Shown here: one piece after another, positions 45,807 through 58,983 of the stretch
How positions within the stretch are numbered: position 1 is the first letter of the stretch
How the letters are laid out: each line of letters starts with the position of its first letter
IMG/VR virus record: IMGVR_UViG_3300017917_002441
Location: 32,001-96,000 of that record
Direction: 5' to 3' (one strand)
Length of the DNA stretch: 64,000 nt
Source: a virus
Position numbers and translations under genes: made by a program
Notes under the pieces: generated by a model
The model's database searches: none
Told to the model about the DNA's origin: nothing
Seen by the model: the letters and a program-made list of their open reading frames with translations, nothing else

Positions 45807-46118
45807 ATGGCACAAGCAGAACCAAGAACAAAAATCAAACCCGTAGAAAAAGTCAAAGAGCCACCTATGTTTCGTGTGATTTATCTAAATGATAATCAAA
45901 CCAGCATGGAGTTTGTAATTGATAGCCTCATGGAGTACTTTGATTACACCGAAGAAAGTGCTGAAAAACTCACCATTGACATCCACGAAACCGGCAGTGC
46001 TGTTGTTGCAGTGCTACCGTATGAAATTGCGGAACAAAAAGGTATTGAAGTTACAATCAGTGCCAGAAGTCAAAGCTACCCGCTACAGGTCAAGCTTGAG
46101 CCCGAAGACGTAGTTTAA
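45807..46118 (+). CDS. clpS: N-end rule adaptor ClpS
   Basis: P.MFRVIYLNDNQTSMEFV, IH..G.A, EIAEQK, YPL. Confidence 0.9.
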   Translation: MAQAEPRTKIKPVEKVKEPPMFRVIYLNDNQTSMEFVIDSLMEYFDYTEESAEKLTIDIHETGSAVVAVLPYEIAEQKGIEVTISARSQSYPLQVKLEPEDVV

Positions 46119-46918
46119 ACATTAATCTCAATGCGCATGGGATGATACACATGACGGCACCAATCGGTGCCGTGTCTACCACGGCAGTTGTTTAAAAATC
46201 TTATGTCATGGCGAGTTTGATCCACACTGCCATGATAGTGTCCAAAGCACCAAGTATGTAATTTGTTGCCGTGGTCTGCGCCCAGGGCTTGCATCATGTT
46301 GTTGTTGCCCAAGGTGTTGAAGCGCATGGTACCGTCAAGACTGATGTCGTGTTTGACTAATTCCCAATAAGGCACAGTGTGTGTAACCGCTACAATATGC
46401 TGTACGTCAAGGTGAGTTTGTAGTTTGTCTACACTGCTGATCATGTAAGTGGCATCAGTGTTGCTCATTCTAGCGATGCTTTTGGTTGTGCGTGAGTTAA
46501 TTGGGGCATGTGGTTGCATTTTTTCTTCCCACCACAAGGCACATTGTTCAGGGTTGATGCTAATGTCAAAATCCCAGCCCCACCACCCGTTGGTGCCTAA
46601 TATAGCCACACCATCGATCACAACTAGATTATTTTGCAAGTAAACAACATTGGGAATTTTAGCAATGCGTTTTTCTAAGTCACGATAACTGTTGGGGAGA
46701 TCGTCATAGTAGTCCACATGTTCTTCGTTGCCGTCTATATAAAACACAGCTTGATAGCATTGACCAAGATGTCTAAGTGTATTAATTAACAAGTCACGAT
46801 CTCTAGCAACATCTCCAGCTACTATACAAAAGGAACTGGTGGCACGACCCTCCCAGTCAAACGGTTTAGGCCACGTGTCTACGTGTAAATCAGAAATTAA
46901 ATCAAAAGCAAATTGCAT
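46115..46918 (-). CDS. Calcineurin-like metallophosphoesterase
   Basis: SDLH, AGD, GNEEH, THTVP, FGHYH; TAAATA 6 nt upstream on - strand. Confidence 0.85.
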   Translation of the reverse strand: MQFAFDLISDLHVDTWPKPFDWEGRATSSFCIVAGDVARDRDLLINTLRHLGQCYQAVFYIDGNEEHVDYYDDLPNSYRDLEKRIAKIPNVVYLQNNLVVIDGVAILGTNGWWGWDFDISINPEQCALWWEEKMQPHAPINSRTTKSIARMSNTDATYMISSVDKLQTHLDVQHIVAVTHTVPYWELVKHDISLDGTMRFNTLGNNNMMQALGADHGNKLHTWCFGHYHGSVDQTRHDIRFLNNCRGRHGTDWCRHVYHPMRIEINV

Positions 46919-46942: not shown

Positions 46943-47299
46943 ATGAACATAATATTTGGCGAAGACATTAAACATTTACCTGACAACTACACCATCCTAG
47001 AATTAGATAGTTTTAGATTCACTAGATCGGGAGAAATTGCCAAGGCATACTGTGTGGTTGAGAAAATACCCTTGGGTGAATTCCCCACACTAGACGAATA
47101 CAGAAATGCACACAATGAACTGTTGGTGCAGTATCGTGCTAAGAATTGGGAGTATTGCCAGGAAGCTATCAAAGCACTAACGGGCCGCTGGGGTGGAGAG
47201 CTTGACACATTTTATCAAAGCCTGCTGGAACGTGTGCAAGCTTACGAACAAACACCACCTGGTGATGACTGGGACGGTGTGATACTTAAAATAGCTTGA
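46943..47299 (+). CDS. Stand-alone paralogue of adenylate-cyclase C-terminal tail
   Basis: Y..LELD...H...L..YR...L.GR..GE.D..Y....ER......P...DWDGV shared with 52858..54909; AAGGA SD before ATG 46943. Confidence 0.7.
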   Translation: MNIIFGEDIKHLPDNYTILELDSFRFTRSGEIAKAYCVVEKIPLGEFPTLDEYRNAHNELLVQYRAKNWEYCQEAIKALTGRWGGELDTFYQSLLERVQAYEQTPPGDDWDGVILKIA

Positions 47300-51505: not shown

Positions 51506-52534
51506 ATGACTAACAAATTTGGTTTCTGTTGCAAGTGGATCGATGACCCCAGCGAATGCGCTGGTCGTAAACCCACTACCGAAAGCCGTGATCTCAACGG
51601 CCGTTCAACTACTATGCGCTGGCTTCGCGAACACCCAAACGAAGCCGAACAGCGTCAGTGGGACATCATGAATCACAATGCTCGTGCGGCTCTGCTTATG
51701 GTTGAACGGGTTGCCGCATTACCACCCGAGCGTAGAATGGTGCGGCTGGGCAGTGAAATGCTACAAGGCTACACACACGAAGACTGGATTCCATTTTGGC
51801 AACAAGCAGATGTGCAAGCTCATTGTGCGCGGATCTTTGCGCCAGTTGGTGCTCGTGCTAGAGAACTAGGCGTGCGCTTGGGTTTTCATCCCGGTCAGTT
51901 TTGTGTACTGGCAAGTGAAAGCGACGAAATTGTAGAACGCAGTATTCTTGAATTTGAATACCACGCCGACATGGCTCGCTGGATGGGCTATGGTAGCACA
52001 TGGCATGATCATGGTTTTATGATCAATGTCCACTTGTCGGGCAAAGGTGGCCCAGACAAATTTTTGCGGACTCTTGGTAAACTTAGCCCCGAGGCTCGCA
52101 ACCTCATAACTATAGAAAACGACGAGGTATCAAATGGTTTGGACGTTACTCTCTCTGTGGCTGATCATGTGGCTCTTGTGCTGGACATTCATCACCACTG
52201 GGTCAAGACCGGTGAGTACATCGACGCAGGAGATGCTCGTGTACAGCGTGTGGCTGAGTCTTGGCGTGACGCTCGCCCTGGCATGCATTATAGTGTTAGC
52301 CGCGAAGATCTTCTTGTTGGTCATGATACCGGAAATCGCCCAGATCTTGCTGGACTTCTTGATCGAGGTTTTAAAAAGCAACAACTCAGGGCACACAGCG
52401 ATTTCATGTGGAATTCGGCTGTGAACAAGTGGGCACTGACCTTTTGTGATCAATTTGACATTGAAGTCGAAGCCAAAGGTAAAAATTTAGCAACCGATGG
52501 GTTGCATCAACAATGGCTGGCAACACGTGCTTGA
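51506..52534 (+). CDS. uvsE: UV-damage endonuclease UvsE/UVDE
   Basis: GF.C, RLGFHPGQF.VL.S, IENDE, LDIHHH, H.S, RAHSD, EAK.K. Confidence 0.88.
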   Translation: MTNKFGFCCKWIDDPSECAGRKPTTESRDLNGRSTTMRWLREHPNEAEQRQWDIMNHNARAALLMVERVAALPPERRMVRLGSEMLQGYTHEDWIPFWQQADVQAHCARIFAPVGARARELGVRLGFHPGQFCVLASESDEIVERSILEFEYHADMARWMGYGSTWHDHGFMINVHLSGKGGPDKFLRTLGKLSPEARNLITIENDEVSNGLDVTLSVADHVALVLDIHHHWVKTGEYIDAGDARVQRVAESWRDARPGMHYSVSREDLLVGHDTGNRPDLAGLLDRGFKKQQLRAHSDFMWNSAVNKWALTFCDQFDIEVEAKGKNLATDGLHQQWLATRA

Positions 52535-52811
52535 TATTTTTGAAAACACATTTGAATGGATAAAAGATGACTGGAACTCTCATCCTTTCCGCTTTGTTAT
52601 CGAATTGCTTGCTTGGGCTATTAGTATTGGGTGCTCAATCACAATGGCTCTTACGGTCCCAAATCCACCTTTGCTTGTTCTTTATCCTATTTGGATTGCA
52701 GGTTGTGCTATGTACGCTTGGTCTGCTTATACTAGGAAATCATTTGGCATGCTGGCTAACTACATCTTGTTAACTACTATAGACACAGTTGGACTGATAC
52801 GCATGTTATAA
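52527..52811 (+). CDS. Small membrane protein (three TMs)
   Basis: Hydrophobic segments; probable GTG start 52527. Confidence 0.65.
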   Translation: MLDIFENTFEWIKDDWNSHPFRFVIELLAWAISIGCSITMALTVPNPPLLVLYPIWIAGCAMYAWSAYTRKSFGMLANYILLTTIDTVGLIRML

Positions 52812-52818
52812 AATAAAC

Positions 52819-52842
52819 GGCCCCGTAAGGGGCTTTTTATTT
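52819..52842 (+). terminator. Rho-independent terminator
   Basis: GGCCCC-GTAA-GGGGCT then T-run. Confidence 0.7.
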
Positions 52843-52857
52843 GGCGTAAATAAAGTC

Positions 52858-54909
52858 ATGCTAAAAAAATTACTGCTTTCACCATGGACAGCAACGGTAA
52901 CTCTTGTATTAATCTTGGCAGTTAGAACCGCAGATCCTGTTTTTGTTGAAAGTATTAGATTACGTTATTTTGACACACTGATCACTGCCAAAGAATCTAC
53001 AGTCAACAACATTGTTACTGTAAATATTGACGAAGCCAGTTTGGATCGTTATGGTCAATGGCCGTTGCCGAGAGCTGAATATGCCAAAATTGTTCGAGAT
53101 CTATACCAGAAGGGAGCAGGCCTTGTGGTACTTAATGTACTCATGCCAGAGCCAGACCGCACAGGTGGCGACAGTGCGTTGGGTCAAACTCTAAAGGAAT
53201 TCCCAGTAGTGCTGGGCAGTGCGCCTGCAAACAACACCAAAAACACTCCACGAGTACCTGGCTCAGCAGTGCTGAATCCCGAGTACCTAGATCAAATCAT
53301 ACAATATCCGGGGTTAATAGCCAACGTTCCGCAATTGGAACGCAATGCCGCTGGTGTTGGCGTCACAGGCACACTGCCCGAAGTCGACGGTGTTAATCGT
53401 CGCATGCCTTTGATTGTTGCAGTAGATGGCAAACTATATCCAGCTCTAAGCTTAGAAACTTTGCGTGTGGCAGCCAACGATTCAACCTTTCAAGTCAAGC
53501 TGTTTGAAGGCGGTGTTGAAAAAATGCGCATTCCACAGTTTGGTGTCATTGCAACGGATAGCCTAGGGCGTGTGTGGATTGACTGGAGTCAACAAAGTCA
53601 AAGCTACAGTCTAACCAATATACCAAACAATTTAAACGGAGCTATTGTAATAGTAGGCCCTACGGCCGCTGGAATAGGTAACCCGTTGCCAACTGCTCGT
53701 GGTGCTGTGTGGCCGCACGAAGTGCAAGCCGCAGTGATAGGCACCATGGTCAACGGCGTTGTTATACAACGTCCTGACTACGCAGACGGTGTAGAAATCA
53801 TAGCCCTGGCAGTGGCTAGTATATTACTGCTGTTTTTAACAAGGTGGACTTATGCGGGATTGGCTAGTGTTATTGTGTTGGTTTGTGGCTCCGTGGCTGG
53901 TAGTTGGTGGGCTTTTACTAATCATTTATGGTTATATGACGCTACTGCCTTTGCAGTTGGCACAGTCCTGGTCGCTTTGCATGCCTACGGAGTCAAATTT
54001 GTTTCAGAGTTCTTACAGAAACAACAAATAAAGAAACAGTTTGGCACATATCTCTCGCCCGCCATGGTTGAGAAGTTGCAGAAGAATCCTGAGCTATTAA
54101 CTTTGGGTGGCGAGTCAAGAGAGTTAAGTATCATGTTCACTGATGTGCGCGGGTTTACTTCGATATCTGAACACTATGGTCGAGACGTACAAGGTCTTAC
54201 TAAAATTATGAACCGGTACATGACTGCAATGACTGCCAAGATCATAGAAAACAACGGAACGTTAGACAAATACATTGGCGATGCACAAATGGCATTTTGG
54301 AACGCACCGCTAGACGATGCAGATCACGCAAAAAACGCAGTTCGAACAGCATTAGAAATGATGAGGAGCCTTGATGACTTTAATGCAGAAATTACTCAAG
54401 AAGGTGTGCCAGCCTTTGGTATGGGTCTTGGAATCAACACCGACACTGTTGTGGTGGGTAATATGGGATCTAGTCAGCGTTTTGACTATACTTGCCTTGG
54501 TGATGGCGTCAATTTGGCTAGCCGATTGGAGGGCCAGAGTAAGCCGTACGGTGTCCGAATTGTACTTGGTCCAAGGACTGCAGAATTGGTGCAGGAAGAA
54601 TACTACGTACTAGAACTAGACTGTATTGCTGTTAAAGGCAAAACACAAGGTGTACACATCTATACAGTGCTAGGGCACAACAATGATGTTGTTGCCGAAT
54701 CCAATGATAGACAGATGCACGAAGCAATGTTGGCATTGTATCGTCAGAAAAAGTTTGATACAGCTATAAAATTCTGTCAGGACTTGCGCGGAAGATTCAA
54801 CGGTGAAATGGATTACTACTACACTGCTTGGATTGAACGTTGTGAAGAAATGAAAAACACCCCTTTGCCCACAGACTGGGACGGGGTGTATCGTGCTACC
54901 AGCAAATAA
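52858..54909 (+). CDS. CHASE2-domain class III adenylate cyclase
   Basis: N-terminal TM; IDE.SL..YGQWP.PR and DGV.RR.PL (CHASE2); three TMs; FTDVRGFT, DKYIGDA, FDYT.LGD.VNLASRLE; TAAATA 5 nt before ATG. Confidence 0.93.
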   Translation: MLKKLLLSPWTATVTLVLILAVRTADPVFVESIRLRYFDTLITAKESTVNNIVTVNIDEASLDRYGQWPLPRAEYAKIVRDLYQKGAGLVVLNVLMPEPDRTGGDSALGQTLKEFPVVLGSAPANNTKNTPRVPGSAVLNPEYLDQIIQYPGLIANVPQLERNAAGVGVTGTLPEVDGVNRRMPLIVAVDGKLYPALSLETLRVAANDSTFQVKLFEGGVEKMRIPQFGVIATDSLGRVWIDWSQQSQSYSLTNIPNNLNGAIVIVGPTAAGIGNPLPTARGAVWPHEVQAAVIGTMVNGVVIQRPDYADGVEIIALAVASILLLFLTRWTYAGLASVIVLVCGSVAGSWWAFTNHLWLYDATAFAVGTVLVALHAYGVKFVSEFLQKQQIKKQFGTYLSPAMVEKLQKNPELLTLGGESRELSIMFTDVRGFTSISEHYGRDVQGLTKIMNRYMTAMTAKIIENNGTLDKYIGDAQMAFWNAPLDDADHAKNAVRTALEMMRSLDDFNAEITQEGVPAFGMGLGINTDTVVVGNMGSSQRFDYTCLGDGVNLASRLEGQSKPYGVRIVLGPRTAELVQEEYYVLELDCIAVKGKTQGVHIYTVLGHNNDVVAESNDRQMHEAMLALYRQKKFDTAIKFCQDLRGRFNGEMDYYYTAWIERCEEMKNTPLPTDWDGVYRATSK

Positions 54910-54911
54910 AT

Positions 54912-55205
54912 TTACTGAGCCTTGTCAACAGATTTGTTGATTTTCTTGTCAGCTTCCATGCGTTCGCGTTCAATTTTATCGCCACGCAAATGCAAAGTCA
55001 CAGTGACCTTTTGATTGAGTCTGATCAAATCGTTATCCAACATACGAATACGATCGATCAAGGCAATTAATGTGGTGTTGGCTTCGCTCAACACTGGCTT
55101 GATTTCTGTTGTTGCCCACTTCCATACATAAAATATCAAGTAGCCCATGCCCCCGGCAGCTACTATAGGAAATCCATATTTGTTAACTAATTCTACAATG
55201 TCCAT
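54912..55205 (-). CDS. Small membrane/coiled-coil protein (GFPI motif)
   Basis: YGFPI TM then coiled coil; paralogue of 55694..55972. Confidence 0.7.
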   Translation of the reverse strand: MDIVELVNKYGFPIVAAGGMGYLIFYVWKWATTEIKPVLSEANTTLIALIDRIRMLDNDLIRLNQKVTVTLHLRGDKIERERMEADKKINKSVDKAQ

Positions 55206-55208
55206 ACT

Positions 55209-55358
55209 TTACCCCAATAAAATTCCAACAACAACACCGATTGCAAACGCAACACTGGCAACATAAAACAAATCTCGGTCATGCCATAGAGGTTGATTTT
55301 TTAAATATATTTTGGTATGTTCAGGTAGACTGTTGTACCATTGGCTCCATTTGTCCAT
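55209..55358 (-). CDS. Small membrane protein (49 aa, not in ORF track)
   Basis: MDKWSQWYNSLPEHTK...VASVAFAIGVVVGILLG*; AAGGA SD. Confidence 0.6.
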   Translation of the reverse strand: MDKWSQWYNSLPEHTKIYLKNQPLWHDRDLFYVASVAFAIGVVVGILLG

Positions 55359-55503
55359 GTTGTAATCCTTGTTGTACTAATGCATTTAATTGGTCGGCGC
55401 ATCGTCTAATATCTTGCGACAGTTCTCCGTTACCAATGTCCTTTTCAACATCTCTTGCTACGTCATGCAGTTTAATTACGTCATCTACTAGTCTAAGAAT
55501 CAT
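55321..55503 (-). CDS. Hypothetical protein
   Basis: GAGG SD before ATG 55503; LHDVAR...DIRRCAD. Confidence 0.55.
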   Translation of the reverse strand: MILRLVDDVIKLHDVARDVEKDIGNGELSQDIRRCADQLNALVQQGLQHGQMEPMVQQST

Positions 55504-55513
55504 GTGATGCCTC

Positions 55514-55693
55514 TCAATCAATTTTGTTAACAAACTTTTCAAACGCATCTAGCCGACGCAGCCAACGCTGGCCGTCAATCTCAACCAGCTGAAAAACGTC
55601 ACCGGGATTCCAAGTTAGTTTTGCAACATTGATCTCTTCGTCAAGTTTGATACCGTTGGGATACAAGTCCCAGTCATAATCAACGTACTTCAT
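55514..55693 (-). CDS. Small protein, AbrB/MazE-like (59 aa, not in ORF track)
   Basis: MKYVDYDWDL...LTWNPGDVFQLVEIDGQRWLRR... Confidence 0.55.
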   Translation of the reverse strand: MKYVDYDWDLYPNGIKLDEEINVAKLTWNPGDVFQLVEIDGQRWLRRLDAFEKFVNKID

Positions 55694-55972
55694 TTAGTCC
55701 CTTCTAGCATCACTTTGTTCTGCTCGAGCAATACGATCTAAGTCAGGTTCTAGCCCTAGAGCATGCGATACTTTGGTGTCAATACGTACAACGTCGTGAT
55801 TCATGGCAGCCACACGTTTGTCTAATGCGCCAATAATACCGGCCATGCCTTTAACGCTGGAGGTAACTCCAGCAAGAATAAATTTCAGTGTTAGAAATAC
55901 AAAATAGCCGGCTGCAATAGCGGCTGCGATTGGAAAACCTAGTTCTGCAACTAGCTTGAAAAACTCACCCAT
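55694..55972 (-). CDS. Small membrane/coiled-coil protein (GFPI motif)
   Basis: LGFPI TM; AAGGAG SD; TAAATA at 56009-56014 on - strand. Confidence 0.7.
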   Translation of the reverse strand: MGEFFKLVAELGFPIAAAIAAGYFVFLTLKFILAGVTSSVKGMAGIIGALDKRVAAMNHDVVRIDTKVSHALGLEPDLDRIARAEQSDARRD

Positions 55973-56017
55973 GTTGGCTCCTTGAAGGATATAATTTTAT
56001 TATGCAATTATTTATTA

Positions 56018-57109
56018 TTACCGCTGTATAATAGTGATCACTGTGGTTCCGCCGCGATTAATCTGCTGTGTTAATGGTGTACCGTCTTGCACAATGTTTA
56101 GCATAACATCAGCTTCAAGATCCACAGTTACTTGTGCAGTGTGTGTGGTTTGTTTGCGTAGCACTAGTTTGGTGTCGTCTTCGTTTTTTCCGTAAGTTAG
56201 CCCACTGGCAGCTGAGTACCCTGGCAACATTGTTTGTTCAGCTAATATAGCTTCTTGACTAGCAGACAACGTTTGGTTGGCCACGTCCAGCATGTTTGTT
56301 AAAAAATTAACGTCCAAGTAGTTGATATCTAGTTCAACAAATTTTCGAAGTTGGTCTTGGTCCAGTTCGTCATATTTTAAAAAATCTTGATTTAAAAAAT
56401 TTACATCTAATACAGTGCGTTGATCTGTGTTGTTGTCTTTTTCCGTGCTTTGCTTAATCTCAGGTGGCGGGCTAACAATCAATAAGTTGTTGATGTTAGC
56501 AGGGTCTACAGTTACTACCACAGGAGCGGTTGGCGGAGTTGACAAGCTGGCAACCAAAGTAGCTTGAAAAGGTTGGTCTAGTAATACAACCCCGGCATCA
56601 TTGCTGACCATAATAGCCCCAGTGACACAGGCTCGTGAATCACAGCTGGGCAATAGCATAACCAGGCTACGGCCCAGTTCGTCTACAGTCATTGAAAAAT
56701 CTGTACCACGCACTGCCACTGTAGCAGTGGGGGTCTGTACGTTGACATTTTGCGGTGAGTTTTTTGCTATCTGCCCTGATGCGTATCTAGCAGTGCCTTG
56801 TACCATTTTCATGGCCAATTTGCCAGATCCTTTTTTTGGATCATACACAAAGTCGTCTATCACCAACTTTGATTGTTCGGTAATTTTAACAGTGGTATTG
56901 TCGTCAAATGTGAGTTGAGCTTTTGCTCGAGCAGTTACCACAGTGTCGTTCATCTCCACGGCGGAATTTACATTACTCGATACAGACTTTTTGTTGCGTA
57001 TGATTTCAGTAGGGCCAGTTTGTTCTGTTACCCGGCCCACTGCCGCCCAATTAGTCTGACTGAATAATGCTAATATTATTGAGATTGCCAGTGCTGTTGA
57101 CCGTGACAC
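56018..57109 (-). CDS. FecR-domain secreted protein
   Basis: Signal peptide; D.V.T, L.F.D.T...I.E.S.L.ID, G.ARY.SG, V.TPTATVAVRGTDF. Confidence 0.85.
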   Translation of the reverse strand: MSRSTALAISIILALFSQTNWAAVGRVTEQTGPTEIIRNKKSVSSNVNSAVEMNDTVVTARAKAQLTFDDNTTVKITEQSKLVIDDFVYDPKKGSGKLAMKMVQGTARYASGQIAKNSPQNVNVQTPTATVAVRGTDFSMTVDELGRSLVMLLPSCDSRACVTGAIMVSNDAGVVLLDQPFQATLVASLSTPPTAPVVVTVDPANINNLLIVSPPPEIKQSTEKDNNTDQRTVLDVNFLNQDFLKYDELDQDQLRKFVELDINYLDVNFLTNMLDVANQTLSASQEAILAEQTMLPGYSAASGLTYGKNEDDTKLVLRKQTTHTAQVTVDLEADVMLNIVQDGTPLTQQINRGGTTVITIIQR

Positions 57110-57674
57110 TCTTGTTTAACATTCCACTTTGTGTTACTGCTACAGTGTTGGTATTGCCAGTCACTGTGATATCTGCTGAAGTTGTGCCAGTAGCAGTGCT
57201 GGTATGAGTCACAGTGTTAGTGTCCCCCGCAACAGTGATGTTACTGGTGTGATTTGCGCCAGCACCTAGAGTCTGTGTTATGGTGTTGTTGTCACCGTTC
57301 ACAGTTTGTGTGATAGTACTACCGCCGCAGGTTGATGACACTGTGCTACCACATGTGATTTCCTGAGTGTTGGTACTGCCAATGGTTGCAACAGCCACAG
57401 TTGTAGCCGCACCGTTTACCACCATGTTCAACACATTGTTGCTACCAATTTGATCTATAGTAACAGTGTTTGCACCTGACCCAATGTATGCTGGATTCAA
57501 ACTTGATCCAACTCGATTATCACTACCGTCTTGGGTAATGGTAATAGTACTGCCGCTGCCAATTTGTTCAACATAAACTTCGTTGGCATGCCCCGGCATT
57601 ATCATCGCAGACAATGCTAGAATTGCAAGTATTTTTTTCGACAACTTGCCAGCGCCTGTTCTTCCTTTTTTCAT
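57051..57674 (-). CDS. Curlin-like repeat secreted protein
   Basis: Signal peptide; repeated Q.G..N / G..N.V beta-arcade units (EQIGSG, TQDGSDN, DQIGSNN, NGDNN, GDTN, GNTN). Confidence 0.7.
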   Translation of the reverse strand: MKKGRTGAGKLSKKILAILALSAMIMPGHANEVYVEQIGSGSTITITQDGSDNRVGSSLNPAYIGSGANTVTIDQIGSNNVLNMVVNGAATTVAVATIGSTNTQEITCGSTVSSTCGGSTITQTVNGDNNTITQTLGAGANHTSNITVAGDTNTVTHTSTATGTTSADITVTGNTNTVAVTQSGMLNKSVTVNSTGNLNNISIIQSD

Positions 57675-57676
57675 TT

Positions 57677-58456
57677 TTATTGTTTTCCTCGGAATCTCCA
57701 GAGCCCTCTTTTCTCACCCTCAACAATCATTTCGTAAACACCTTGTTCAATGGCTACACGAACTGCATAGTTTGTGGGTTCATTCAATGCGGCACCGCTT
57801 TCTAACTCAACACTGTTGGTGCTTTGATCAACAAAGCGCAACACGCCGACATTGTGTGCAGTGCTATAGATAGTCTTGGAAACAGCGTTGGTCAGTAAAA
57901 CTTCGCCCGAGTTAACGCTGATTAATCTTAAACTGATTACAACTTCATCAACTCGATACTGTTGGCTCCCACCGATTCCCAAAAATCTAGCACCATTACC
58001 ACCGGATCGTATATTGCTATCGTATCCAATAATGCCTCCTTCTATCATGATACCAGCCACTGTGAGTGGCTTCAAGGGCTTGGCATCTTTGCCCTCGTAA
58101 ACTTCACGCTGGTTGCGTATAAGTTGACGTTCTTTGACCAAGTTGTCTAATCCCACACGTTCAACAACTCGAAACCAATTTTTACTATCTTGTAAACTCT
58201 TTATTAGATACACTTCGGCGCCCTGAGTAACTGCTTTACTAAACAGTGCCAGTTTATCATTGGGTTTCATTTGTCCGGTTTTGTCTGCAAACCCATACAC
58301 AGCTATGGTCATGGGAGGACCGTCTAGTGCAGGCAAATTGTTCAGCAAGTTCTCACGTGGTTGCAAGGCCACCGGTTCTTCTCGAGCCAATTCCATGTGT
58401 ATATTGGCACAGCCACTCAGCGTTAACAAAACAATAATAGCGATTAGGTACTTCAT
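57677..58456 (-). CDS. csgG: CsgG-family outer-membrane secretion lipoprotein
   Basis: LSGC lipobox; AVY.F.DKTGQ.K, S.AVTQG, WF.VVER.GL.NL.KERQ.IR, EGGIIGYD.N..SGG.GA. Confidence 0.92.
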   Translation of the reverse strand: MKYLIAIIVLLTLSGCANIHMELAREEPVALQPRENLLNNLPALDGPPMTIAVYGFADKTGQMKPNDKLALFSKAVTQGAEVYLIKSLQDSKNWFRVVERVGLDNLVKERQLIRNQREVYEGKDAKPLKPLTVAGIMIEGGIIGYDSNIRSGGNGARFLGIGGSQQYRVDEVVISLRLISVNSGEVLLTNAVSKTIYSTAHNVGVLRFVDQSTNSVELESGAALNEPTNYAVRVAIEQGVYEMIVEGEKRGLWRFRGKQ

Positions 58457-58902
58457 TAGAATGCAAAGCTCGCTATTGGAACAGTAATGTCAGTTCTATT
58501 ACCGTTGGACTCTATTATGGTTAGAGTAACATCTGCGCCAGTCTTGACCCAACTTATATTTGTTCCTTGAAAGTCTAAGTTGCCAGATGTGGCACCGCCA
58601 TCGGCAAACATTGCGTCTGCCAGTTGTTTGGATAATTGTGCGTAGATACGTGATTCAACGTTGACTAAGAACTTGGCCAAGTTAGTATTCTTGGCATCAC
58701 GTTCGGCCTTGTCGGCCAAGGCCTTGGCTTCGTCTCGGAGTTTTTGTTTGCGTTGGTTTTCCAACTGCTCGATTGTCAGGACGTGGCTACTATACCCTTG
58801 TCCTGAGAAGGCTGGCGAGTTGAACTGATGCACCAGTTCGGTGGCGTGGCTCCGGCCGATAATTACTACTGCCAGGGCGCCTGCGATTATAATTTTATTC
58901 AT
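58456..58902 (-). CDS. csgF: CsgF-family curli assembly protein
   Basis: Signal peptide; ELVHQFNSPAFSG N-terminus; F...ESRIYAQLS; adjacent to csgG. Confidence 0.8.
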   Translation of the reverse strand: MNKIIIAGALAVVIIGRSHATELVHQFNSPAFSGQGYSSHVLTIEQLENQRKQKLRDEAKALADKAERDAKNTNLAKFLVNVESRIYAQLSKQLADAMFADGGATSGNLDFQGTNISWVKTGADVTLTIIESNGNRTDITVPIASFAF

Positions 58903-58906
58903 GACA

Positions 58907-58935
58907 ATCCCCGTGCTTAGTATTTACACGGGGAT
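58907..58935 (-). promoter_or_regulatory. Late promoter in the loop of an SD-sequestering hairpin
   Basis: - strand ATCCCCGTG-TAAATA-CTAAG-CACGGGGAT-TGTC-ATG. Confidence 0.6.
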
Positions 58936-58983
58936 GGTCAATTTAAATGTAGCTAGATTTTCTTGTTCTAGAACAAAAAGTTT

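Follow-up and report, generated by a model that had tools for sequence, protein, structure and literature searches.

A viral curli-type cassette with a FecR-domain protein and a CHASE2 adenylate cyclase in a jumbo-phage lineage: a candidate trans-envelope module

Curli-type genes have been described before in marine phages. Zaragoza-Solas (2020; PMC7029224) and Buchholz (2022; PMC9004378) reported csgF and csgG as a 'curli operon' of pelagimyophages and of phage Melnitz, in which a cyclase or FecR was never mentioned, and Wittmers et al. (2022; PMC9599517) described the arrangement 'HK(s)'-CsgF-CsgG-CsgA/B-FecR-(CsgA/B)-adenylate cyclase in marine podo- and myo-pelagiphages, together with its transcripts in metatranscriptomes. 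Here we analyze a cassette of this type in a stretch of 64,000 nucleotides (nt), bases 32001-96000 of the viral record IMGVR_UViG_3300017917_002441 (hereafter, the window), in which minus-strand genes for CsgF, CsgG, a curlin-repeat protein and a FecR-domain protein converge on a plus-strand gene for a class III adenylate cyclase with a CHASE2 domain (Table 1). The initial annotation of the window had singled the cassette out as an undescribed system, a claim that must be withdrawn, since pelagiphages were shown in 2022 to carry a cluster that includes FecR and adenylate cyclase (PMC9599517); by its gene content, the cassette is a published kind of viral curli block in a new phage lineage and in rearranged form. 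It shares with the pelagiphage cluster the same families (two small genes, CsgF, CsgG, curlin, FecR and CHASE2 cyclase) and a lytic phage as carrier, but the carrier here belongs to a ~340-kb jumbo lineage, the cyclase arm is inverted and convergent, two small membrane protein genes (s92 and s97) delimit a block between fecR and the cyclase, and a second curlin gene was not found in the 149-kb record. To these new features the present analysis adds the recognition of s92 and s97 as core genes, the definition of three units by a TAAATA motif, the likeness of the FecR domain to PupR and to the adhesin domain 5ix9, whole cassettes in Caulobacteraceae and an apparent swap to type I secretion in one marine contig. 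No paper joining CHASE2 with these phages was found in the literature, and the study of 2022 does not name a CHASE2 domain in its adenylate cyclase (PMC9599517).

Table 1. Features of the cassette and their positions in the window (aa, amino acids; ORF, open reading frame).
Feature	Position	Strand	Details
Terminator-like hairpin	52811..52842	+	Closes the upstream gene 52497-52811; RNA fold -18.6 kcal/mol, GC stem then U-run
TAAATA, late-promoter-like	52847..52852	+	5 nt before the cyclase ATG, directly after the terminator-like hairpin
CHASE2 receptor class III adenylate cyclase, 683 aa	52858..54909	+	CHASE2 PF05226, 137.7 bits, residues 14-323; Guanylate_cyc PF00211, 69 bits, residues 421-602
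s97, single-pass membrane protein, core gene	54912..55205	-	phrog_18771, PHROG E 2.7e-33
Three overlapping small ORFs of 49, 75 and 59 aa	55209..55693	-	Accessory; conserved in closer relatives only
s92, single-pass membrane protein, core gene	55694..55972	-	phrog_18771, PHROG E 7.5e-35; conserved C-terminal ...DGKxDARRD
s92 leader	55978..56014	-	TAAATA 56009-56014; AAGGAG Shine-Dalgarno 55978-55983; separate start of the small-gene unit
Exported FecR-fold protein, 363 aa	56018..57109	-	PF04773, 48.9 bits
Secreted curlin-repeat beta-solenoid protein, 207 aa	57051..57674	-	Signal peptide; PF07012 Curlin_rpt, 29.8 bits (cut-off 20.7)
CsgG outer-membrane lipoprotein pore	57677..58456	-	PF03783, 176.8 bits (cut-off 20.8); lipobox LSGC
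CsgF	58456..58902	-	Signal peptide; PF10614, 58 bits (cut-off 25.8), covering 9-142
csgF leader hairpin	58902..58940	-	TAAATA 58921-58926 in the loop; GGGGA Shine-Dalgarno 58908-58912 in the 3' arm

An argument for treating these genes as a unit is their linkage across related phages. IMG/VR was scanned with CsgG, the cyclase and s92 as anchors and all cassette genes were tabulated by tblastn, the locus samples being the best 80 of several hundred matches, which biases them towards relatives of the window, and the linkage counts being restricted to loci with at least 9 kb on each side of the anchor. Under these terms, csgG is accompanied by csgF, curlin, fecR and cyclase in 33/33 loci, the cyclase by csgF, csgG, fecR, s92 and s97 in 37/37, and s92 by s97 and the cyclase in 36/36, and in the few loci that seem to lack csg genes these run off the fetched flank. 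At least 10 gene orders or orientations keep the set together, with the fecR stop overlapping the cyclase start by 4 nt in about 19 loci, and the same set is found colinear and on one strand in HTVC008M (gp011-019) and Melnitz (gp97-104), at 37-50% identity over at least 87% of each protein (tblastn). Cyclase and csg/fecR genes are thus linked, rather than independently assorting, in the sampled loci, in agreement with the initial proposal of one conserved functional module. Because the parts are identifiable and intact, their products are located in the envelope, a promoter motif is common to their transcription units and linkage is unbroken, all of which are direct observations, it is very likely that the genes form one functional module. 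An opposite view would hold that the cyclase, together with s92 and s97, is a host-takeover function raising cyclic AMP (cAMP) alone, and that csg-fecR is a separate surface module with which it has only an island and a history in common. The divergence of the cyclase is indeed decoupled from that of the csg-fecR block, cyclase subtypes swap between related blocks, s92 and s97 follow the position of the cyclase in many arrangements and the cyclase has been reported less often in the podophage versions of the viral cluster (PMC9599517). Nonetheless, a linkage that survives at least 10 rearrangements and persists in phages below 45% identity and in bacterial chromosomes, the 4-nt fecR/cyclase overlap and the recurrence of FecR-CHASE2 pairing in unrelated bacterial systems (PMC5192318) lead us to regard such independence as improbable.

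The transcription units of the cassette share a promoter motif of the late type. The 2-nt stop-to-stop convergence pointed out initially is exact, the cyclase ending at 54909 and the final minus-strand ORF, s97, at 54912. This junction (54907-54914) holds no terminator, and the late transcripts of both arms should therefore overlap. Its tightness is not conserved, with a spacer of about 137 nt in L019, the closest relative with the same order, and the gene order of the window (inverted cyclase and s92..s97 between fecR and cyclase) is a minority form among related loci. TAAATA does stand upstream of both arms, as had been reported, but a third copy, followed by a strong Shine-Dalgarno site, precedes the small-gene block; the minus-strand genes, whose set and strand had been correctly given, are for this reason probably organized as two transcription units and not as the single operon first proposed. 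Of the 60 copies of TAAATA in the 149-kb record, 26 have a gene start no more than 45 nt downstream, where about 1.6 would be expected. Across related loci, the motif precedes s92 in 71%, csgF in 67% and the cyclase in 34% of cases, over a background of 4%, and it is found upstream of s97, csgG, curlin and fecR in only 0-9%, a distribution that defines three transcription units. The start of the cyclase (52847-52860) has no Shine-Dalgarno site and, given that TAAATA lies so close to its ATG, a transcript from the motif would be leaderless or nearly so. The hairpin in the csgF leader, in turn, is exceptionally stable (-22.5 kcal/mol, z -6.96; equally stable shuffles, 0/200), and a csgF transcript starting past the TAAATA in its loop would free the ribosome site from the hairpin.

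The genes for CsgF, CsgG, curlin protein, FecR-domain protein and CHASE2 cyclase lie where they had originally been placed, as ORFs and Pfam agree, and all named cassette domains score above their curated cut-offs. In common with the curli system of E. coli, the window encodes a full-length CsgG, a member of the CsgF family and Q-x-G-x-x-N curlin repeats with a beta-solenoid model; unlike it, the window presents changes in two of the three presumed CsgG constriction residues, adds FecR, cyclase, s92 and s97, and has no CsgE that could be found. The alignment of CsgG to E. coli CsgG structures is full length (E 2e-50), and its constriction loop reads KPNDKLALF instead of KPYPASNF. If the constriction residues of the E. 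coli channel loop are, as we take them to be, Tyr, Asn and Phe, then the Phe is retained, Tyr is replaced by Asn and Asn by Leu, and one residue is inserted. No sequence match to solved CsgF chains was obtained for the window CsgF at E up to 1. The CsgE model (PF10627) matched nothing in the 149-kb record, which is 44% complete according to CheckV, with a positive E. coli control, and published viral curli clusters are also devoid of CsgE (PMC9599517). No Pfam model for CsgB, CsgC or CsgD matched any cassette protein, no genome-wide search for them having been made. The curlin-repeat protein comprises about eight Q-x-G-x-x-N units, with invariant Q, G and N columns and a conserved Cys pair, and its AlphaFold 2 (AF2) model is a beta-solenoid of 14 strands (predicted local distance difference test, pLDDT, 87; predicted template modelling score, pTM, 0.79). 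In VIA-align, this model matches generic beta-helices with Z 15-17 and the CsgA fibril 8enq with Z 14.2, but at a root-mean-square deviation (rmsd) of 8.5, and it yields no significant Foldseek match.

The altered constriction and the lack of a CsgE gate (also noted in PMC9599517) might be taken to favor a pore function, proposed in PMC9004378 and PMC7029224, in which CsgG/F would be a gated outer-membrane channel, serving the import of large solutes or cofactors or a pinholin- or secretin-like timing of lysis, and the remaining genes would act as its gate and timer; a faint resemblance of s92 and s97 to YvrJ or holin-like small membrane proteins points in the same direction. This resemblance falls short of significance, however (E 0.0018 over 19 residues; atlas score 0.89), and a pore function leaves unexplained the invariably linked curlin gene, the CsgF protein of the nucleator type and the catalytically intact cyclase, and we therefore give it little credence.

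Although the 149-kb record holds no second curlin gene, a curlin-like gene of 155-1164 aa follows fecR in 65 related loci. The gene in this position is hypervariable (between fecR and cyclase in L004, L006, L008, L010, L017, L026 and others), encoding in some loci a short curlin-like protein that ends in ...C-x-x-x-G-C-x-x-x-V-x-Q and, in other loci, a product of 660-1164 aa with an aromatic last residue, as in outer-membrane barrels or autotransporters.

The cyclase is organized as a receptor, with a first transmembrane segment, a periplasmic CHASE2 domain (~28-312), three transmembrane helices, a catalytic domain (420-602) and a conserved C-terminal tail (603-683), its hydrophobic segments being 4-30 and 307-382. 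All six canonical residues are present, as had been stated for the catalytic and the ATP-specifying Lys/Asp positions: D429 and D475 for metal, K471 and D543 for adenine, and N552 and R556 for the transition state. Across 42 relatives, K471, D429, D475 and R556 are invariant, and the CHASE2 region and the catalytic domain are about equally conserved (mean column identity of 0.69 and 0.76, respectively). The nearest solved structures are Cya2 (2w01) and CyaB (3r5g). Judged by its residues, the enzyme appears catalytically intact, and its predicted output is cAMP.

Thirteen of these 42 related phage cyclases (L004, L020, L023, L029, L057, L061, L069 and others) replace the canonical ...RFDYT...VNLASRLE by ...R(H/F)(S/G)YD...VS.AARLE. 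This subtype has no substrate Asp but an Asp two residues further on, and Ser instead of Asn, with the metal Asp, Lys and Arg retained; its nucleotide specificity may be different. Elsewhere in the window, a stand-alone gene of 118 aa (46943-47299, plus strand) is a copy (28% identity, E 3e-12) of the end of the cyclase, residues 566-677, with the ...DWDGV tail, and its product could be a decoy for, or a regulator of, a factor that binds the cyclase tail. It is divergently paired with a metallophosphoesterase gene (46115-46918, minus strand), the product of which showed no specific likeness to cAMP phosphodiesterases.

The FecR-fold protein is predicted to be exported. Its sole hydrophobic segment, residues 6-24, is a signal peptide of the cleavable type, and it is followed by a beta domain (~21-210), an acidic linker (~205-300, modelled with low confidence) and a C-terminal beta domain of six strands (304-362), the AF2 model as a whole reaching a pLDDT of 82.5. 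Residues 52-210 match the cell-surface-signalling domain of PupR (6ovk; Z 15.4, rmsd 2.5 over 130 residues), and residues 21-116 match the MpIBP/LapA anchoring (retention) domain 5ix9 (Z 10.5, 73/76 residues). No fold match was obtained for the C-terminal domain, which is seen only within the full-length model. A periplasmic FecR-type beta domain and an outer-to-inner-membrane logic are shared with the FecA-FecR-FecI and PupB-PupR systems, but the phage protein is soluble and exported, and ORF list and Pfam revealed no sigma-factor or transducer gene in the cassette, which lacks both a TonB-dependent transducer and an ECF sigma factor. Since it has neither a membrane anchor nor an anti-sigma domain nor a sigma or transducer partner, the protein, in spite of its FecR domain, is not a member of the FecR-type anti-sigma regulators. 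The LapA/MpIBP retention module with its LapE pore (10.1101/198937; PMC5550230) offers another parallel, in which a folded periplasmic plug and a flexible stretch tether a surface protein through a pore; that system is type I and controlled by c-di-GMP, LapD and LapG, whereas the window system would be type VIII and linked to cAMP.

In public protein data, the FecR-fold protein has 6838 relatives. In 137/401 alphaproteobacterial genomes, its ~180 N-terminal residues find their match at the start of very long open frames (500-6900 aa). Such a FecR-like domain at the head of giant proteins fits a plug or anchor role and, in view of the likeness to 5ix9, it would seem that many 'FecR domains' serve giant surface proteins as retention or anchor modules.

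Five small, mostly membrane proteins had been attributed to the cassette; the ORFs exist and three of the five have a hydrophobic segment, but only s92 and s97 belong to the conserved core. The 49-, 75- and 59-aa ORFs between them match neither Pfam nor PHROG, and that of 75 aa may not be a real gene. The core pair are paralogs (E 5e-12) with an N-terminal membrane helix and a helical C-terminal part. Only P14, L50 and R53 are invariant in them. Neither has a Pfam or NCBIfam hit, a kinase domain or an invariant His. Their family counts 816 representatives, the best 150 of which are always small stand-alone proteins of 69-209 aa. The pattern of linkage points to s92 and s97 as obligatory partners of the cyclase. 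One or two genes preceding csgF are labelled as histidine kinases in PMC9599517, whereas the proteins that we find in this position are single-pass, of 92-97 aa, and without a kinase domain or an invariant His, and we infer that the published 'histidine kinase' genes belong to the s92/s97 family.

All products of the cassette are envelope proteins, and the FecR domain has a cell-surface-signalling fold, in agreement with the envelope circuit conceived in the initial annotation. An experimental precedent for a route from an outer-membrane protein to a CHASE2 cyclase is found in S. meliloti (PMC7529298), where the outer-membrane protein NsrA is needed for the CHASE2 cyclases CyaK, CyaD1 and CyaD2 to answer an external protein signal with cAMP (PMC7529298, PMC5498481, PMC13001267). 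In that cascade the outer-membrane partner is a beta-barrel receptor, and not a secretion pore with a fibre as in the window, the reader Clr is established, and a FecR-domain gene is merely a Clr target, with no FecR relay shown. A second parallel is the Burkholderia/Pseudomonas operon described in PMC5192318, in which an exported FecR(LysM) gene adjoins a CHASE2 sensor gene, as in the window, but the output is a histidine kinase with a response regulator and no secretion or curlin genes are present.

On these grounds, it seems reasonable to postulate an envelope-spanning module, phage-borne and made late in infection, in which CsgG and CsgF would form a type VIII secretion pore in the outer membrane of the host and the curlin-repeat protein would be exported through it to build a fibre or coat of beta-solenoid type. 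Under or in the pore, the exported FecR-fold protein would transmit the state of pore or fibre to CHASE2, the periplasmic domain of the cyclase in the inner membrane. Partners of the cyclase would be s92 and s97, and the resulting cAMP would be read by a host receptor or by an unrecognised phage factor. Such a module, expressed late and spanning the envelope, with signals relayed outside-in from pore or fibre through FecR and CHASE2 to cAMP, is given a probability of about 0.5. This relay is, we infer, the best-supported mechanism, within which the contact between FecR and CHASE2, the outside-in direction, the cue and the downstream effect are all presumptive.

Several results weigh against this relay. 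In pairwise-identity matrices, the divergence of FecR follows that of CsgF, CsgG and curlin (0.77-0.79), its coupling to the cyclase being weak (0.10-0.43), and closely related csg-fecR blocks carry cyclases of the two catalytic subtypes. Interchangeable cyclases would explain this more readily than an interface of FecR and CHASE2 that has finely co-evolved. The FecR-fold protein has no other Pfam domain and is without the transmembrane helix and anti-sigma part of a true FecR, and the reading of its C-terminal domain as a curlin repeat had to be rejected as too weak (hhalign probability 6%, E 0.006). A cNMP-binding domain (PF00027), as would be expected of a cAMP reader, was found neither in the 149-kb record nor in four complete 337-344-kb relatives, and clumping was not seen in Melnitz-infected cells by Buchholz et al. 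(PMC9004378). A negative correlation between the identities of cyclase and csg proteins to those of the window was also noted, but it is partly a sampling artefact of locus choice, and the within-set matrices were relied on instead.

The co-variation of FecR with the csg genes is also what would be expected if the fibre came first and the system worked from the inside out, with curlin coating or aggregating infected cells (as a superinfection shield or for 'sibling capture') and FecR, cyclase and small proteins regulating fibre production or monitoring export stress in a quality-control loop, which is the reading of Wittmers et al. (2022). The hypotheses behind it are stated in PMC9599517 and PMC7029224, the export set (pore, CsgF and curlin) is complete, and relatives encode additional curlin-like proteins after fecR, of up to 1164 aa and very variable, as would be expected of a surface product under diversifying pressure. 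The cyclase, on the other hand, cannot act on secretion without a cAMP reader, of which the PF00027 search found none; with a promoter motif of the late type at all units, a single lytic cycle would scarcely allow feedback at the level of transcription; CHASE2 is an extracytoplasmic sensor domain; and the absence of clumping with Melnitz speaks against aggregation as well. We consequently hold the inside-out reading to be unlikely, though it deserves serious consideration.

A more elaborate form of the outside-in relay can be envisaged, in which the FecR-fold protein would be a tether. Its N-terminal domain would act as a plug in the periplasm against CHASE2, its ~90-residue linker would thread CsgG/CsgF and its C-terminal beta domain would cap or nucleate the curlin fibre on the outside. 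The result would be an amyloid 'antenna': on contact with a particle, another cell, lysis debris or a superinfecting phage, cAMP would change, and s92/s97 or a host receptor would use this change to adjust the end of the infection cycle. An analogy is offered by S. meliloti, where the route from NsrA to CHASE2 cyclases responds to free ribosomal protein uL2 from cell extracts (PMC7529298, PMC5498481, PMC13001267). The threading of the FecR-fold protein through CsgG is entirely conjectural, and we deem the antenna as a whole rather improbable.

The cassette lies amid phage replication and nucleotide-metabolism genes in a record classed as viral. Related contigs reach 337-352 kb, with terminal repeats present, and the nearest cultured relatives of the window helicase are Sinorhizobium phage Phosso (469 kb) and PA5oct-like jumbo phages, for which reasons the carrier is a ~340-kb jumbo-phage lineage and not a pelagimyophage. 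With at least 588 cyclase matches and at least 553 s92 matches in IMG/VR, the block ranks among the most widespread phage accessory modules of aquatic metagenomes, and it has also entered jumbo phages of ~340 kb. Hosts without curli would thereby receive a full set for export across the outer membrane, connected to a second-messenger enzyme, and, should the sensor reading hold true, this would be a rare case of a lytic phage placing its own environmental sensor on the host surface. The analysis also provides a parts list for experiments, with s92 and s97 as putative obligatory partners of the cyclase and the FecR protein as putative plug or relay.

Whole-cassette counterparts exist in bacterial chromosomes, which the study of 2022 did not find (PMC9599517). 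Two Caulobacteraceae contigs from metagenome-assembled genomes (L163 and L165) carry csgF-csgG-curlin-curlin-fecR-CHASE2 cyclase amid chromosomal genes, such as those for methylmalonyl-CoA mutase, acyl-CoA dehydrogenase and a TonB-dependent receptor. In one of them, a gene for a CpdA/SpdA-like phosphodiesterase lies directly before the cassette (L165:5776-6636), and the L163 cassette is without such a neighbor. The metallophosphoesterase of the window (46115-46918) was considered as a homolog of this protein and rejected, since only the N-terminal metal motif is common to both (E 0.004). In the other, a membrane protein of the Pycsar effector family PycTM follows the cassette (L163:13527-14120); it is absent from the relative L165 and from all phage loci, no PycTM was detected in the 149-kb record, and its inclusion in the cassette was dropped as coincidental.

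FecR-domain genes had been said to neighbor CHASE2 sensors in bacteria, and this holds in cultured Thalassospira, in a SAR11 genome and in the operon of PMC5192318. In Thalassospira, genes for a TPR protein, a FecR protein and a CHASE2 cyclase stand in a row, the cyclase being 36% identical over its full length to that of the window. In a SAR11 single-cell genome (L183:6542-11500), a CHASE2-SpoIIE protein (PP2C phosphatase), a DUF2860/SlipAM-like outer-membrane barrel and a 511-aa FecR-domain protein are encoded in a row, so that the three layers recur in the same layout but with another output. The pairing of FecR and CHASE2 is frequent but not universal, as the best FecR-like gene does not adjoin the CHASE2 gene in three SAR11 genomes. 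Finally, a marine contig binned as Rickettsiales (L172:5210-15365) encodes a 1317-aa FecR-domain protein, a TolC-like OEP and HlyD/ABC pieces, followed by CHASE2 cyclase, s92 and s97, with no CsgG or CsgF within its 16 kb. Glycosyltransferase genes, sugar genes and a single PHROG of unknown function are also present, so that the contig may be phage or cellular, and its gene content suggests that here the secretion machine has been swapped, type I replacing CsgG/F, with the sensor side retained.

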